Source: a virus. From it: a stretch of DNA of 64,000 nucleotides. The notes below the pieces were generated by a model, which was given only the letters and a program-made list of their open reading frames with translations, made no database searches and was not told the DNA's origin. The stretch is taken from positions 96,001-160,000 of the IMG/VR virus record IMGVR_UViG_3300003690_000002, one strand, 5' to 3'. A program made the position numbers and the translations under genes. This document shows, one piece after another, positions 4,091-35,596 of the stretch (positions within the stretch are counted from its first letter, which is position 1; each line of letters begins with the position of its first letter).

Positions 4091-4984
4091 TATATAATTT
4101 TCTTTTTTAATACTACGTCTCTTGGTGAGATATATTGTAGAATTTTATTTTTGTTATTTATCGACTTTAACGTCAAATACTGCTCTCTATTCCATGAAAT
4201 AAATTCCATATTTTCAACATAAAAATATTTATTATTATATTGAACTAGGTTTCCAATATAGGTTTTTGTTCCATTTCTATCAATCGCGAACATTGGCATA
4301 GTTATCTTCCCCTAGTTGCGTTGTACTTTTTTCTTTTTGAATTTAGTTAACTTCTTGTTTATGATCATTATTAAATTTAGAACCACGCTTAATTTTAACT
4401 TCTGTACATTTTTCATGTAACTGTCTTTTAAAATTACTTGCCTCTTCATAGGTTGAAAAAGTTGCAGCTATTTTCCATGTTTTATTTTTTTGTACATCAA
4501 CCATTTTCTTTTTCACTCTTATCGTCAGAATTGAGTTCTAAAGTGTTTTTCTTTTCAGTTTCTGCACTTGGTATAAAACTAGCAACTGCTTGTGCCACAA
4601 CAGAGGCTTCTTGTAAAGAAAAAACTCCTTTATCTTGAGCTAAATTAACTGCTTGTACCAATATAATTACAGCCTGTTCCTGGTTCATTATACTACTCCC
4701 TTTTTAGCCAATACCATCCCTACAACAAATCCCACCACCAGTGGAACTATAAATCCTATTAAACTATCCATAATATTTTCCTTTCTAGTTAATCGCAAAG
4801 TAATTTTTTATTATATTTTTTGTTTTTGCAAATATTTTGTTCTTCTAATTGCTCTTCATATTGAAGCTTTACAAGGTGCGGATATTTTTCAAATAACTCT
4901 GGAAGAGTCAAATTTTCTTTTCTTTGAATTTCTGTAATTGCTTCTGTAATTTTACCCATTATTTTCTCCGCATTATATTTTAAG

Positions 4985-5366
4985 TGGAGGCGCTGGGAGT
5001 CGAACCCAGGTCCAAAAGACTGCAAAAACACGATCATTCACAAAAATAGACGCATTCACCACCGAAGCGTCAACCACCTGATATTCCTATCAGGGAATCC
5101 ATTTACCAACTTAAAGGTGTTGACTACCGGAATATATAGTCATAAAAATGGCTAAATACCTACTACGCCCACCACCAATTTTTCTAAAAATTGGAAACGG
5201 CTAATATTTCTTTAGAAAGCTATTAACAACTTCCGATTATGCCGCCATGGCATAATCAAATTCAACGTTATCGTTGGCATTTATAAAAGTCAAGTATTTT
5301 TACTGTGTTACTTACACAGTTTTGCACGTTGTTTTATTCGTATTTTGTCGAAACCGTTTCGCCCCC
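4985..5366 (-). ncRNA. ssrA: tmRNA (382 nt), tag ANDNVEFDYAMAA
   Basis: 5-prime GGGGGCG pairs with 3-prime CGCCTCC-A including G3:U70 alanine identity; T-arm GGGTTCGACTCCC; resume context ATAAAT-GCC; tag ORF 5278-5237 ending in AA-stop inside hairpin GATTATGCC/GGCATAATC; CCA not encoded. Confidence 0.96.
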
Positions 5367-27298: not shown

Positions 27299-27389
27299 AT
27301 AGGAATCCTAGCTTTGTTTAGTATTAATAAATAGTTACAATCATTGAGAATGCCTTAAAATCTCATATTTTTTCAGCGGTATCACGAAC

Positions 27390-27472
27390 GTACTTAGTCA
27401 GCTCTCCTAAGTACCTGTATTCATTGGGACATAGATTCCGGTAGAGGGGGGGAGGGGCCCGGGGGGTACCCC
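27390..27472. other. G/C-tract element plus hairpin at the early/late zone boundary
   Basis: G7-A-G4-CCC-G6-TA-C4 at 27446-27472 containing palindrome GGGGTACCCC; 8-bp inverted repeat GTACTTAG/CTAAGTAC at 27390-27414. Confidence 0.6.
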
Positions 27473-28918
27473 ACAAAGCGTAGCTTGTTAGCGCTTGTTC
27501 TTATCTATACTTAAGGAAACCTTTTAACTCTTCTAGTGTACATACTGAATCACCTTTGACTGTACTAACCTTGCAGCTATTACAGTGTCTCCATGAGCGC
27601 GTTACTACTCCCATACGTAATGTATTCGTAGTGTACTGTACCTTACCTTTACTACACTTAGCACATGTACCTATCTCTTTTGTTAACAACATTTATTTTT
27701 TATATCCTCGCCCCTTTTTCTTACGGGGCTGGTCATATGCTATTGGGATCGTTTGGATGGGAAGGGGCGGTCGATGCTGCCGGTGGTGGCATTCTCTTTA
27801 GTACACTTGCCGGTGTTCCACCAGTTCTTGCGCGTTTGCTCTTGAAGGGCATCTAGCGCGTCTTTGTAATCTTCTGGTTGCGTTGTATCTTTTGTTGCTG
27901 TTGCCATATTAATTAGCCTCCGTACATGCATTGATAAAGAGTTGTGCATTAAAACGCGGGTTAGTTTTTGCTAGTTCATTAGCAAAGCTAACCACTATGT
28001 CTTGGACGACGCAACGATTCATTGGCGAAGTGCCATGAGCCTTGAGTACGTCTGCGATAAGTTGGAAGTCTTTCTTGGTCATAGCTTTATACCTTTTTTC
28101 TCCACTGTACATGTATATTATCTCACATGTTCAATGGTTTGTCAAGTACTTTATTTTTTGTTTTTACTCTCGCCAGTATATCTTATTGCTTGTAGACTCT
28201 CTTGGGTTCTAGGCGCAACATTTCATTCAGATAGACTATCAGCGCTCCTAGCTTGTAGCTAGCTGCATACTCTATCGCGCTAGCTTCAGACCAACACAGC
28301 CCGGTATACGGGCTAAAAGGTCCAATCTCTTTCACTTTCTCAAATTCAGATTGCAATGCATCTTCAAGCTGTTGCTCGTAGTCTTGCTGACGTTTCAATG
28401 CTTCGTCGTATTTACTAATTTTGCTGTCCTCACTCATAATAATTATCTCCTCAAATAGAAAATGCTTGACAATTAGCGGAAGTACCTATGTACTTAGTAT
28501 TCCCCATATCATCCCACTTTGCCCCACCCTATTCAACTTACTTTCATTTATAAAAGCTTTATGTAAGCTTTCTGTACCACCACTACCCATTTTACTTCCA
28601 CAGCGCTGATTCACGGGTTGTGAACACTGCCATGCCTTTGGATGAGTGAAGGTCGCAAGAATCGCACCATCGCACCGCAGACATGTCAAAGGATTTATAG
28701 TAAATATTTCCCTTTTTGCATTGAGCACATTTGCCTAATTTCTTTTTCTTTGGCTTCGAAGTACTTTTCTTTCCAAGATTAAAAATCATTAGAAAATTGC
28801 CATAGCAAAAGTAAAAATACCTACATGTGCTGCAACAATCAGATACACCCAACCTTTGTTGGTTAGTTCTCCTGATGCGTCTCGAAGGGTTGTTGTGTCG
28901 AATTGATTTAGTACTTTC

Positions 28919-30941: not shown

Positions 30942-32024
30942 TTGATTGACTTTCCTGATACTTTGCCCCAAACAGATGCGTTATAAAGCAAATGGTCCTC
31001 GACGCTGAAAAACTCGGTTTCTCCGGTAATCTCGCTCCAATTGTTTAGCAAGTCCTCGTCGTTGACGTCTTTGTAAGAATCGTCTTCCCAATCCTCAAGT
31101 GCGCCACGCGCCCATGCAGCAAGTTGCTTTCGCGCACCGTCTTCGGTTGTGTGGATGGAAATGTCTTGACCGTGTTTGTGGTCCCATTGAGCGACATACA
31201 CGGTTTCAGATGTTTTTGATTTTGGAATTACTGGCATGTTAATTATCCTCCGCGCAACCATTGGCGCATTGTTGTAAGACCAAAGTAGGATAGCCCATGC
31301 CATCGGAAGCATAGTGATTGCGTACCGAAGCACCAATCAATCCACAGGCGTCACATACACCAATGCCATGCTCTGGGGGGCAATCCTCTGCCATAAAATG
31401 CTGGAAACGCTCAGACCTAAGCTTATTCGCAGCTTCACGGTTGTCATACGATGACGCTAACTCGTAACAGCCTTCCGCAACAGCAACAGCAATCGAGGGC
31501 ATGCCATTGGCAATTGCCTGAGTGGTGTTATAGGCAACACGCATCGTTGGCGTAACTTCGCGCCCATCCTGCAAGACTACGCGAGCTTCTTTCATCCAAG
31601 AACGTGCTGCACTGATGCGACGACCAGAACGAGCTTCAGCAACGACGGTTGCAGAGGGAGCGGGGAAAGCGGTTGTCATGTGATTAAGTCCTTTTGCCAT
31701 TGTTTCTATATACATTATCTCATAAAAACAAGGATTTGTCAAGGATAAAGTGAAAAATTTTTTCGATTCGTGATTTCGATATTAACTACATGCGGTGGGG
31801 TGCGACCAGTTTTCGTATTGCCAGTCGGAAATGAGTTCGTCTTTGCAAAGAGAATCGGTCCAGTTATTCCACGCTTCGCTACGGGCTGGAATGTCTTTGA
31901 TACCGTCTTGTTCAAACTCTTTTTGAACTTGCGGAAGAATATTCTCGTTGAATTGTTCGACTGCTTCTTTCCAAGTAATTACGCTATAAAGATTGTTTGC
32001 CATATATTTTAACCCTTCTTCTTC

Positions 32025-32059
32025 AAAAAAAATGTGCGAGGTTCCCAACTTCCTCGCAC
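32025..32059 (-). terminator. Intrinsic terminator
   Basis: GTGCGAGG-N10-CCTCGCAC-A-T8. Confidence 0.8.
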
Positions 32060-32460
32060 TAAACACGACCTAAACGCTTACGCAACGACCTGACTAGTCG
32101 CAACCGGCATGCCACCCATTCGCTCCAACAGGACGCGCATTACAAGGTGCCCGGTGATTTAGACTAGCCAATCTCGCTCGTGTCTCCCACGAAAAGAAAA
32201 TCCGCATGGTCGGCATGAGCCTTTCGAACAACGACCTTGCGAATTTTTAAGAAAACCCGCGAGGTCGGCATGAGCCTTTCATCCGTAATGGGAGTTGCAC
32301 CCATGCAGCAGGATACCACTCCCGCCGATTCTGCTCTGACTAAATAACGAGGTATCAGCCCGGTTTAGTCCTACGGCATATATTCTGAACATGCCAGTTT
32401 GGTACTCGCGGATTTTCAAAGAGCGAATCAAGAAATCGTTGATTTCTTTCTCCACTGTAT
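32025..32460 (-). ncRNA. Candidate structured non-coding RNA of about 430 nt with its own promoter and terminator
   Basis: Promoter 32465-32493; intrinsic terminator 32025-32059; no ORF of 60 aa or more; two 32-nt direct repeats; multiple G:U-containing helices on the minus strand. Confidence 0.6.
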
Positions 32461-32861
32461 ATATATTATCTCATAAATTTAAGAATTTGTCAATACTTTT
32501 TATTCTTTTTTTAATTCTTAAAAACAAGGAGTAAAAGAGCGAAGAAATACAGCAAACCCGATATTGCGCTAGCATACAAAATATCTTTTGTGAACCTGTT
32601 CATTTCTTTTGGGCTCTCTTTTATGACTTGCTTCCAACGCAAACAATTTCTGAATCTGTTTCAATCCAGACTCTTGCACCACAAGATAATGGTTTATCTG
32701 GTGAGTATATTACCTTACATGGTCCCATAATGATCGCTTCGTGGCAATAATCATTTGACTTATAAGTTTTGACCGCTATTACAGGCTCTCGTTCCCCAGT
32801 CTTATGATTGCGTCGAATTATATGTTGATTTATATGAACTTTCTTTTTCAAAACTGTCTCC

Positions 32862-32948
32862 TGGTGCCATCGGAGGGACTCGAACCCTCACATCCATACG
32901 GATAACGGATTTTAAGTCCGTTGTGTCTGCCAATTCCACCACGATAGC
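32862..32948 (-). tRNA. trnL: tRNA-Leu(UAA), 87 nt, CCA encoded
   Basis: Acceptor GCTATCG/CGATGGC-A-CCA; anticodon arm ACGGA-CTTAAAA-TCCGT; long variable arm; T-loop GTTCGAGTC. Confidence 0.96.
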
Positions 32949-33174: not shown

Positions 33175-34413
33175 TTAACCATCAATAGCAATAATCCTTT
33201 CGCTAGTTTGGAAATAAGGGCGATGAGCGTAATATTTTGTTGTCATCCACATTCGTTGACATTTAGAAGCTTTAGGCTTTGGAGCCATCAAGTCTGTCAA
33301 AATAATGTGACCATCAAAACCATGCTTGTTCACATATTCGGTAGGAGCATCGAAGCATGTTCCACCATGCATGACACGTTCAGTTTTGTGATTCTGCCCC
33401 TTTTTCCACTCGTAAATAAGCGATTCCTCAACTCGGGTATCGAAAGGAACAACAGTAAACGAAGCGAGTTTAGAAAGCTTGCTCAACTCGCTAAAAAACG
33501 ATGCGAGCATATCATCCCCTACAGAACCACTTTGGTCAATGCTGATTGCAATACGGGCAACACGCTTAACCTTCTTACCAGGATGAATGTAACGATATCG
33601 TTTATTGATTCGCTTTACTGTGCTAGATTTGTTCGAGCGCGTAGAAGTTTTTACAAAGTATCGAAGTACTTTGCGCCAATCAATATGGGTTTGAATTCGT
33701 TCAAGAATCTCTCTTCGACACGAAGCAGGCACGGTACCCCAATTAGATGCGTTTTGAGCCTCTTGTGCTGCCTTTTTTACAAAGTCCTTAATACGTTCCT
33801 TAGCAATCTCGCCCGTTGTAGAATCGACTTTGCCCCAACCTTCGTGAGAGTCGAACTGTTCACTGGAATCGTTATTGCTACTGCTGCTAGATCCGTTTTC
33901 ACCGTCACCACTGTCACCAGATTTATTTTCTTCTCCATCGTTACGTTTTTGTCCTTTGTTCTTCTTTTCGAACTGTTCATCTTTTTTCAAACGCTTAAGA
34001 TAAGCTTCTGCGCTTAGACCGACTGGGTATTCCTCAAATCGATCAACACCTGGCACAAGACAACCATCAGGCAATTCGCCAATCAAATGCGAATTAATAG
34101 CAAGGTCTGTTGCAAAGTTCCAAATTGTATGATTGACTGCATCTGGTTTTCGAGAAGTGACATGTTCAAAAATCAAATGATAAAACTCATGTTTGAGTAC
34201 CCCAAGACGTTGAACATCAGAAAGTTTTTCAAAAAACTCTGGATTGTACAACATTTCAAAATGTGCTGTCTCGGGATTAACTCGTACTCCCGCAGTTGGA
34301 ATTGTAGTAGTAGCACGCTTGTTAATACGACGAGACAATGAAGCAAAAAACGGCTCTTGCATAAGCAATCGCGCCGTGTGTATGTTCAAATCGAAATTAC
34401 TAGTTTTACTCAT
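33175..34413 (-). CDS. HExxH metallopeptidase-like (DUF2201-type) + vWA domain protein
   Basis: VLKHEFYH; DLAIN; ISIDQSGS; GGT; ILTD; partner of the adjacent MoxR ATPase. Confidence 0.85.
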   Translation of the reverse strand: MSKTSNFDLNIHTARLLMQEPFFASLSRRINKRATTTIPTAGVRVNPETAHFEMLYNPEFFEKLSDVQRLGVLKHEFYHLIFEHVTSRKPDAVNHTIWNFATDLAINSHLIGELPDGCLVPGVDRFEEYPVGLSAEAYLKRLKKDEQFEKKNKGQKRNDGEENKSGDSGDGENGSSSSSNNDSSEQFDSHEGWGKVDSTTGEIAKERIKDFVKKAAQEAQNASNWGTVPASCRREILERIQTHIDWRKVLRYFVKTSTRSNKSSTVKRINKRYRYIHPGKKVKRVARIAISIDQSGSVGDDMLASFFSELSKLSKLASFTVVPFDTRVEESLIYEWKKGQNHKTERVMHGGTCFDAPTEYVNKHGFDGHIILTDLMAPKPKASKCQRMWMTTKYYAHRPYFQTSERIIAIDG

Positions 34414-34468
34414 GTCTTAATTATCTCAAATTTAGGCGAGTTTGTCAAGTATATTTTAAACTATAATT

Positions 34469-34498
34469 AAAAAAGAGAGGGGATCTCTCCCCTCTCTT
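34469..34498 (-). terminator. Intrinsic terminator after the MoxR gene
   Basis: 11-bp stem AAGAGAGGGGA/TCCCCTCTCTT followed by a T-run on minus. Confidence 0.8.
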
Positions 34499-34507
34499 GC
34501 GAAGCTG

Positions 34508-35596
34508 TTATTCCTCGTCTTCAGAGGAATTTCCGGTTAGAATTTGAACTAGGTAGTCAGATACTCGAATTCCATCCGTTGCTTTTGCTTGGTGGAGTGA
34601 AGTGGTATTCTCAAGATCCCCAGCACCCAAAACCGTCCACAGTTTCATAGCAACTTCAGAAGGAAGTGTTACAAAATAATTTGATAGATTTTGAATTTGC
34701 TCATCAGACAATTTTTCTTTAAAAATTTCTTTGGCTTCCATTTTTTCAACTAACGCACTATGCGCATTGATATCAAAATCAGATGTTTTTTCAAGCTTTC
34801 CTTCGTCAATGACTTCTTCAACAGTAACTTGATGCTCATAATTAGCGACAAAATCGTTAAATGCCACTGCTGCTTCAAAACCGACATAAGCAGTTGAAAG
34901 ATTGAAAAGCGTGGACGAAGCTTCAGCTAGCAAATCAGCCCTTGCAAGACAGTCATTGAGCCGTTTCCAAGAACGTCGCGAAGGATATACTTTGTTTGGC
35001 TCATAATCGCCATCGTGCTCCAAATGATTACGATTTTGATTAATGAAATCCCAAATCAAAGAATCAACATTTTCTTTACCCCAAGACAACCAATCTTCAA
35101 TTGATGGCTCAACATCAAATACAACATAGCGGTCAAGTTCCGCAGGGTCCATTTCGTTAACTTGATATTGATCACCATGCTCGCCGCCATTAATGGCAGC
35201 AAAAAGGATCGTATCAGGATGAAGATAGTGACCATTCAATTTGCGAGAATCAGTAAGTTCAAAGATACCTTGTCGAACTTCTGTTGTTGCTCGGTCGACT
35301 TCGTCTAGAAAAAGAACAACCGGTTCCGTACATGCTGTTACAAACCAATCCGGGGGATTAAATGCAGTAGCTTGCGTACCATTAATATCAACGCCTTCAG
35401 GGCGAGGTAGACCAACTAGATCACCTTCTGTCATTTGACTGGCACGGCGTTCGACAACAGGGATTTGTGCCTCGTTGGCGAATTGATATACAACCTCAGA
35501 TTTACCAACCCCGTGACGACCGCGAATCATTACTGGTTTACGATCATCAACAACAAAGGAGACACACTCAAGAAACGTTTTGAAATCAATTGCCAT
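34508..35596 (-). CDS. MoxR-family AAA+ ATPase
   Basis: GRHGVGKS; EGDLVGLP; LFLDEVDRA; AAIN; MDPAELDR; PSRRSW. Confidence 0.88.
   Translation of the reverse strand: MAIDFKTFLECVSFVVDDRKPVMIRGRHGVGKSEVVYQFANEAQIPVVERRASQMTEGDLVGLPRPEGVDINGTQATAFNPPDWFVTACTEPVVLFLDEVDRATTEVRQGIFELTDSRKLNGHYLHPDTILFAAINGGEHGDQYQVNEMDPAELDRYVVFDVEPSIEDWLSWGKENVDSLIWDFINQNRNHLEHDGDYEPNKVYPSRRSWKRLNDCLARADLLAEASSTLFNLSTAYVGFEAAVAFNDFVANYEHQVTVEEVIDEGKLEKTSDFDINAHSALVEKMEAKEIFKEKLSDEQIQNLSNYFVTLPSEVAMKLWTVLGAGDLENTTSLHQAKATDGIRVSDYLVQILTGNSSEDEE

Follow-up and report, generated by a model that had tools for sequence, protein, structure and literature searches.

A non-coding gap of about 430 nt in an uncultured marine phage of 186 kb holds a real, conserved and unclassified phage RNA domain, here termed module A, which lies within a mosaic cassette. 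Judged by sequence comparison, the 430-nt stretch is a mosaic of separately distributed pieces and not one RNA family. The best explanation, to which a probability of roughly 0.55 is given, takes the gap for a genuine early transcription unit, non-coding and mosaic in build, in which module A is self-contained and would act in trans. A sequence-only reading of this DNA had earlier proposed one stand-alone early phage RNA with switch-like alternative pairings. Part of that interpretation holds: the element is non-coding, lies on the minus strand, is structured, falls outside Rfam and shows compensatory changes in its 5' domain against one relative, whereas the single unit and the switch are not supported. 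The individual features of that reading (promoter, terminator, direct repeat, 5' complement, nested 3' helices and T-arm-like hairpin) are all recovered in place on the minus strand.

Genomic setting and anatomy of the cassette

The window, that is, the whole stretch of DNA analysed (64,000 nt), comprises bases 96001-160000 of an IMG/VR record of 186,398 bp with direct terminal repeats. The phage proteins are only distant kin of those of known phages; the MoxR-like ATPase, for example, shares 30% identity with Vibrio phage phiKT1024. The RNA unit sits within a minus-strand gene block driven by seven near-identical promoters, TTGACA-N14-TGAGATAAT, which a promoter scan places on the minus strand between 28145 and 37285. 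Each of the seven starts a short cassette. The same promoter also starts cassettes in the related loci L005, L006, L008, L009 and L011, where the contents differ, and this combination of shared promoters and varying cassettes looks like a shuffling system for early genes.

Around the unit lie genes for an AAA_5 ATPase and for a DUF2201_N/DUF2201 (VWA-like) protein, the tRNA-Leu(UAA) gene, and genes for small proteins without assigned function (Table 1). The PHROG label 'HNH endonuclease' on the DUF2201 gene, the second of its pair, is an apparent misnomer. In the window the tRNA-Leu gene lies ~370 nt upstream of the RNA unit, and two small ORFs are inserted between it and the unit promoter; in relatives, represented by contigs from public runs, tRNA-Leu is found directly upstream of the unit's promoter, with 38 nt between (32475 joined to 32867). 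The phrog_8676 ORF is by far the commonest piece of the stretch in marine metagenomes, with a summed contig depth of up to 1331 in run X4 and many diverged variants.

The whole 186-kb genome contains six gaps of at least 150 nt without any ORF of at least 55 aa. Two of these fall in the present unit and one is the tmRNA gene, itself among the few non-coding regions of the genome; another is listed in Table 1. G+C content is 0.49-0.53 across the RNA unit versus 0.30-0.42 around it, and the unit is the sole G+C-rich one among the six gaps. No ORF of 60 aa or more occurs in it, as the sequence-only reading had noted, the longest on the minus strand being 58, 51 and 45 aa.

Table 1. Positions of the cassette components and of other features in the window, ordered along the window
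Feature	Position	Strand	Details
tmRNA, full length	4982-5366	-	96 bits; tag peptide ANDNVEFDYAMAA
Another of the six non-coding gaps	27299-27500		G+C 0.44; at the boundary where the promoter type changes
Downstream 73-aa gene, phrog_336	31782-32003	-	No assigned function; ribosome-binding site begins right after the terminator U-run
Intrinsic terminator	32025-32059	-	8-bp G+C-rich stem, 10-nt loop, U8; 93% identical in L008
Module B leader	32060-32190	-	GUGGGAGACACG..., GGUCGUUGCGUAAGCGUUUAGGUCGUG
Extra 80-nt hairpin in module B	32091-32170	-	Holds palindrome GGCAUGCC
Hairpin 2, tandem copy without insert	32191-32248	-	32232-32248 pairs with 32197-32212, 15/16 pairs
Two 32-nt direct repeats	32249-32280 (repeat 1); 32194-32225 (repeat 2)	-	91% identity, period 55; 3' halves (loop and 3' stem strand) of the tandem hairpin copies
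Module A, 169 nt	32249-32417	-	P1, 13 bp (32405-32417 with 32251-32263); P2 (32390-32396 with 32266-32272); then UUUUCUU
123-nt insert in module A	32282-32404	-	Helices P3, P4, P5, P6
P3	32372-32376 with 32283-32287	-
P4	32364-32370 with 32338-32344; 32359-32362 with 32348-32351	-
P5	32320-32327 with 32306-32313	-	Loop GUGGUA, D-loop-like
P6	32300-32304 with 32288-32292	-	5 bp, 7-nt loop UGCAACU, T-loop-like
5' hairpin	32422-32456	-	Outer helix 32452-32456 with 32422-32426; inner helix 32443-32447 with 32431-32435
Early sigma-70-type promoter	32465-32493	-	TTGACA-N17-GATAAT, extended -10 TG; 11/12 consensus positions; conserved in L005
76-aa ORF, phrog_8676	32621-32851	-	Function not assigned
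tRNA-Leu(UAA)	32862-32948	-	CCA end encoded; Rfam match 32865-32948
MoxR-like AAA_5 ATPase and DUF2201_N/DUF2201 (metallopeptidase-like, VWA-like) pair	33175-35596	-	Common to all related loci

Read in the direction of transcription, the cassette consists of the promoter, the 5' hairpin, hairpin copy 1 with its 123-nt insert (module A), hairpin copy 2, module B with its 80-nt insert, the terminator and the gene. Transcription would start near 32458-32456. In the terminator, which had been described as a clean intrinsic one, GUGCGAGG (32059-32052) pairs with CCUCGCAC (32041-32034) across the 10-nt loop, followed by A and U8 (32032-25); the terminator scan passed over it because the loop limit of the tool is 8 nt. 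By the pattern of a G+C-rich stem-loop followed by a U-run, this element, hairpin 2 and the plain hairpin of the relatives described below are all putative intrinsic terminators. The promoter scan detected no promoter between 32465 and the next at 31742.

Mosaic distribution among related phages

Eighteen related loci were gathered through the DUF2201 protein, and the sole homologue of the 5' half among them is in L005, which has the 5' half only. From the promoter through the 5' hairpin to where repeat 1 ends, the two align at 85-86% (91.5% in the core), and similarity then ends abruptly. The break falls exactly after P1 and the U-run: the 3' strand of the closing helix in L005 is directly followed by UUUUCUUUUCU, with the same U-run right after P1, the flanks differ and module B is not found there. 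Module A is 91.5% identical to L005:7465-7633, compared with 67-69% DNA identity for the flanking AAA-ATPase and DUF2201 genes, and on these alignments it is far better kept than the neighbouring genes; part of its high identity could come from recent inter-phage transfer. Loci L028-L031 are the same strain as L005, so that the distinct module A sequence variants number two.

The homologue of module B is located in a different phage, at L008:3452-3596 on the plus strand, as an independent promoter-driven unit with a different gene behind it. A promoter, TTGACA-N17-GATACT, drives ~110 nt (CAGUGGGAGACACGGACGAGAU..., GGUCGUUGCGUAAGCGUUUAGGUCGUG) and then a terminator, ahead of an unrelated 69-aa gene, and this cassette is 93% identical to window 32025-32095. 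With its promoter, ~110-nt leader, terminator and ribosome-binding site, the L008 segment is a portable cassette.

Both halves also bear insertions relative to simpler relatives. First, in relatives from runs X4, X6 and X2, 9 nt (GUCAUUGUU) replace window 32282-32404, leaving the plain hairpin GAAAAUCCGCGAG-GUCAUUGUU-UGAAAGGCUCAUGCYGACCUCGCGGGUUUUC, which is the same as the window spacer plus repeat 2. Second, in L008 and in contigs from X2 and X4, 21 nt replace the 80-nt hairpin of the window. The corresponding joints in relatives run from 32281 to 32405 and from 32090 to 32171, in addition to the 32475 to 32867 joint next to tRNA-Leu. The 123-nt and 80-nt inserts have no similarity to each other, and neither recurs in the phage genome. 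The proposal of a stand-alone 430-nt unit fails on both counts, as the 5' domain and the 3' part occur apart in different phages (L005 and L008, respectively) and each part carries an insertion that relatives are without.

The core of module A (32251/32258 to 32401/32438) has no differences in contigs of X2, X4 and X6 (DNA) and X10 (RNA library). The X10 metatranscriptome contig is 263 nt long at depth 2, with a 5' flank unlike that of the window, and DNA carry-over is possible. The data sets with module A include ocean and hydrothermal-vent sources. Matches to a covariance model of the domain (R1) are confined to the window and the L005 lineage: none was found in the 18 related loci beyond L005 or in nine whole related virus records, and a weak match in L016 and L017 falls inside a 222-aa gene. 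A blastn search against 50,697 phage records gave no matches, and six IMG/VR pattern scans gave only L005/L008 contigs or chance matches in coding sequence (L023-25, L032, L033, L034). One metagenome scan recovered the L005 strain only, and a scan of 185,579 prokaryote genomes returned 10 chance matches, none of them fitting R1.

Structure of module A and its alternative pairings

Module A is a terminator-like hairpin whose loop holds the 123-nt structured insert, and in the consensus fold the insert forms four helices around a junction. This fold, derived from the window and L005, comprises ten helices with 61 pairs, and each of the 122 cells is a standard pair, compared with 40-49% when the partners are slid. 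Between the two strands of P1 the window and L005 differ at 14 positions, all of them transitions, and no pair is broken. Both bases are replaced in three pairs of this core (P5, one; P6, two), and a fourth such change lies in the 5' hairpin, where a further three pairs are changed on one side and none is broken; the 5' hairpin folds with a z of -3.1. In simulations of 14 random transitions, 1.6% break no pair, 0.2% give at least three double changes and ~0.01% do both (P ~1e-4). The pattern suggests that the predicted module A fold is an evolutionarily kept RNA structure. On the covariation check set by the sequence-only reading, one comparison of two sequence variants gives compensatory changes and no broken pair, the structure having been chosen with the same alignment. 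P1, P2 and P3 show no change on both sides, and covariation supports neither P3 nor the internal loops.

Computed folds agree with a structured RNA read from the minus strand, as had been proposed. The whole unit has a minimum free energy (MFE) of -159 kcal/mol (z -3.6, with 0/100 shuffles as good), and module A has a z of -4.95 on the minus strand versus -2.84 on the plus strand. Seven G-U pairs in the consensus fold work on the minus strand only, which together with the z values points to the minus strand as the transcribed one. The same folds recover the local repeat 1-spacer hairpin and the helices nested in the 3' half, both described in the sequence-only reading, and the T-arm-like hairpin AUGGG-UGCAACU-CCCAU (32304-32288) corresponds to P6. 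The consensus junction fold lies above the MFE by 14 kcal/mol in the window and by 6 kcal/mol in L005.

These observations bear on three other explanations of the gap. The first is that the region has no dedicated function and is a pile-up of terminators, a duplication and insertions in a hypervariable early region, its identity reflecting recent phage exchange. The joints in relatives do mark the region as a recombination mosaic, the cassettes behind identical promoters differ between relatives, and module A is present in two lineages only. However, 14/14 substitutions keep pairing and three pairs are compensated on both sides, module A is unchanged in four independent runs in which neighbouring genes vary by 10-20%, and the genome tolerates almost no other non-coding DNA, so this explanation appears improbable.

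The second is that the short ORFs encode small early proteins, either of 58 aa, starting at a GTG at 32455, or of 35 and 40-45 aa, starting at the repeat ATGs. The 58-aa frame is open from KIREYQ onward in L005, with 8 synonymous versus 5-6 non-synonymous changes, a weak hint of coding, and AAAGG precedes the repeat ATGs. Against this, a 2-nt indel in the 5' hairpin loop of L005 breaks the 58-aa frame, the GTG there is followed by a stop after 5 codons, and no usable ribosome-binding site precedes the part common to the window and L005. The repeat-ATG peptides diverge right after the repeat (14 aa in L005), the relatives are without 123 nt of the frame, and a search of 5.8 billion predicted proteins yielded no relative of the 58-aa ORF. 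Codon-level conservation had been named as an observation that would count against a non-coding RNA; the start of the frame and the N-terminus are not kept, and the substitution pattern suits helices better than codons. Small proteins are accordingly a very unlikely product of this region.

The third is a DNA-level element, such as an origin, a set of iterons at 55-bp intervals or a signal for single-strand initiation. Direct and inverted repeats do occur here in a G+C-rich island, with a repeat spacing of about five helical turns. Such an element is nonetheless extremely improbable given the consensus promoter and U-run terminators in the same orientation, the seven G-U pairs that function on one strand only, the location of the compensatory changes in small hairpins, and the presence of no more than two repeat copies.

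The switch-like pairings have a simpler origin. As had been noted, the 5' segment at 32405-32417 is complementary both to repeat 1 over 13 nt (92%) and to repeat 2 over 10 nt (100%). Hairpin 2 (-19.6 kcal/mol, z -2.4), with UUUUCUUUUC (32200-32191) after it, is a homologue of the relatives' simple hairpin (joints 32235/32238 to 32405/32408), and the loop UUGUUYGAAAGGCUCAUGC is kept between the two hairpin copies. The motif GGCAUG/CAUGCC occurs five times in the unit, where intermolecular or alternative pairing is possible. With the 5' strand, repeat 1, the spacer and repeat 2 numbered as segments 1 to 4, constrained folds give -99.5 kcal/mol each for the state with P1 (1:2) and hairpin 2 (3:4) and for the state pairing repeat 1 with the spacer (2:3) and the 5' strand with repeat 2 (1:4). 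On paper, these models make the RNA bistable. The simplest explanation of both the direct repeat and the alternative pairings is that one terminator-like hairpin was duplicated in tandem and that they arose as by-products, because any tandem hairpin duplication yields equal-energy pairings of this kind; the resemblance between the 5' segment and the spacer goes back to the same event as the repeat. Each state places a helix (3:4 or 1:4) directly before the U-run and no antiterminator conformation appears in the constrained folds, so that a transcription switch is not indicated and the terminator-switch reading was rejected.

The same folds bear on the possibility that the full 430 nt acts in cis as a leader for the 73-aa gene, resembling an attenuator or riboswitch, in which the domain senses a ligand, tRNA or protein and sets read-through of the two terminators. 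The 73-aa gene begins right after the terminator with no detected promoter of its own, module B precedes a gene in L008 too, and the two pairing states are of equal energy. In addition, the P5 loop UGGU is complementary to the ACCA 3' end of tRNA-Leu and a UUA bulge in P4 matches the tRNA-Leu anticodon UAA, both short matches that could be due to chance. On the other side, the stem before the U-run is kept in both states, with no antiterminator; unrelated sequence follows module A in L005, where module B and the gene are both missing; module B in L008 serves a different gene; the relatives have the plain hairpin only; and no T-box or riboswitch family matches at E up to 10. Tests for an attenuator or riboswitch therefore failed, there being neither an antiterminator nor a conserved downstream gene, and a cis-acting leader is a possible but rather unlikely account. 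Because the flanks of module A are not conserved and module B serves different genes, module A is better regarded as a self-contained module than as a dedicated attenuator.

Proposed function and comparison with known RNAs

Under the preferred reading, an early transcription unit with a trans-acting module A, host RNA polymerase would start at the consensus early promoter and make the 5' hairpin and then module A. Most transcripts would end at the tandem sites 32249 and 32191, with hairpin 2 offering a better U-run than copy 1. The resulting stable RNA would be ~210-270 nt long, its insert clamped and protected by the 13+7-bp stem. Read-through via module B to the canonical terminator would yield ~430 nt, and beyond this lies the 73-aa gene. 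Module A would then work in trans, its conserved loops binding a partner, either protein or RNA, for which GUGGUA, UGCAACU and the junction strand AGAGCAGAAU are candidate contacts. The shared orientation of promoter and terminators favours this course of events; a stem closing a 140-nt domain, on the other hand, is an unusual terminator. A search of the phage genome for an antisense target of the conserved loop GAAAGGCUCAUGCCGACC found none.

The sequence-only reading recognised no RNA family, and a search of Rfam 15 (4227 models) agrees. At gathering thresholds only the tmRNA (4982-5366) and tRNA-Leu (32865-32948) pass, and at E up to 10 the sole match in the unit is Tymo_tRNA-like (E 2.4), whose 15.6 bits fall short of its threshold of 40. 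Three further candidates were rejected. A retron msr-msd was discarded as no RVT_1 match exists across the 186-kb genome. A bacterial Y RNA (YrlA) was discarded as the phage genome, to which this search was confined, has no TROVE or RtcB gene and the unit has no Rfam match. A hammerhead was discarded by eye, the core being CUGAUAC versus CUGANGA.

Several known systems nevertheless share individual traits with the unit. Like intrinsic and tandem terminators, the relatives' plain hairpin, hairpin 2 and 32025-32059 combine an A-run, a G+C-rich stem and a U-run, and two or three stand in series behind one promoter. Unlike plain terminators, copy 1 has a conserved 123-nt structured insert in its loop, and the loop is conserved between copies, neither of which is expected of a plain terminator. 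Riboswitch, attenuator and T-box leaders likewise have four mutually exclusive segments, a P1-closed structured domain, a U-run and a gene downstream; here, in contrast, the stem before the U-run is never freed, the downstream gene is not conserved and no family matches.

Resemblance to tRNA-like structures (the tymovirus TLS, YrlA, the tmRNA domain) lies in the four-helix junction, in the 5-bp, 7-nt T-loop-like hairpin stacked by the closing helix, and in the GUGGUA loop, which resembles a D-loop. Nevertheless, the test for a tRNA-like structure failed: set against the UUCRANY T-loop and GG-bearing D-loop of tRNAs, the UGCAACU T-loop has a G at position 55, where U55 is expected, the GUGGUA loop occupies the anticodon-arm position and there is no acceptor end. 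ARAGORN and the tRNA model RF00005 found nothing in 32025-32493, and YrlA differs further in the Ro/TROVE or RtcB gene that this phage genome is without.

Among small phage RNAs, species 1 and 2 of phage T4 (rnaC/rnaD) are stable, structured RNAs encoded beside tRNA genes and are cut from the tRNA precursor. They share with the present RNA a small size, structure, a position beside a tRNA gene and, under the preferred reading, stability, and differ in that a dedicated promoter and terminators are found here. GOLLD and ROOL are large ornate RNAs, often found in prophages and near tRNA genes (PMC5737381; bioRxiv 10.1101/2024.12.08.627333). Module A is likewise phage-borne, structured, non-coding, close to a tRNA gene and of no assigned function; it differs in being 169 nt long versus about 580-800 nt and in having no Rfam match at E up to 10, and the pseudoknots and multimer contacts of those RNAs are not part of its predicted structure.

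A bolder and tentative proposal is that module A founds a new class of phage RNA, a tRNA-elbow-like domain of four helices held in a clamping, stabilising terminator hairpin. Made early in infection, it might act in trans as a decoy or mimic directed at a host factor sensitive to tRNA shape, such as a tRNA-targeting defence nuclease or a tRNA-binding enzyme, with the tandem hairpin giving two equal-energy conformations. This specific role is possible, though doubtful.

GOLLD, ROOL and the stable RNAs of T4 belong to a small and little-understood group of structured phage RNAs without assigned function. Module A adds a compact candidate of 169 nt that is much better conserved than the neighbouring proteins, and its origin is visible, since relatives retain the plain terminator hairpin into which the domain was inserted. 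Its function is testable through this natural pair with and without the insert. The case illustrates how a terminator hairpin may become a scaffold for a new RNA domain.
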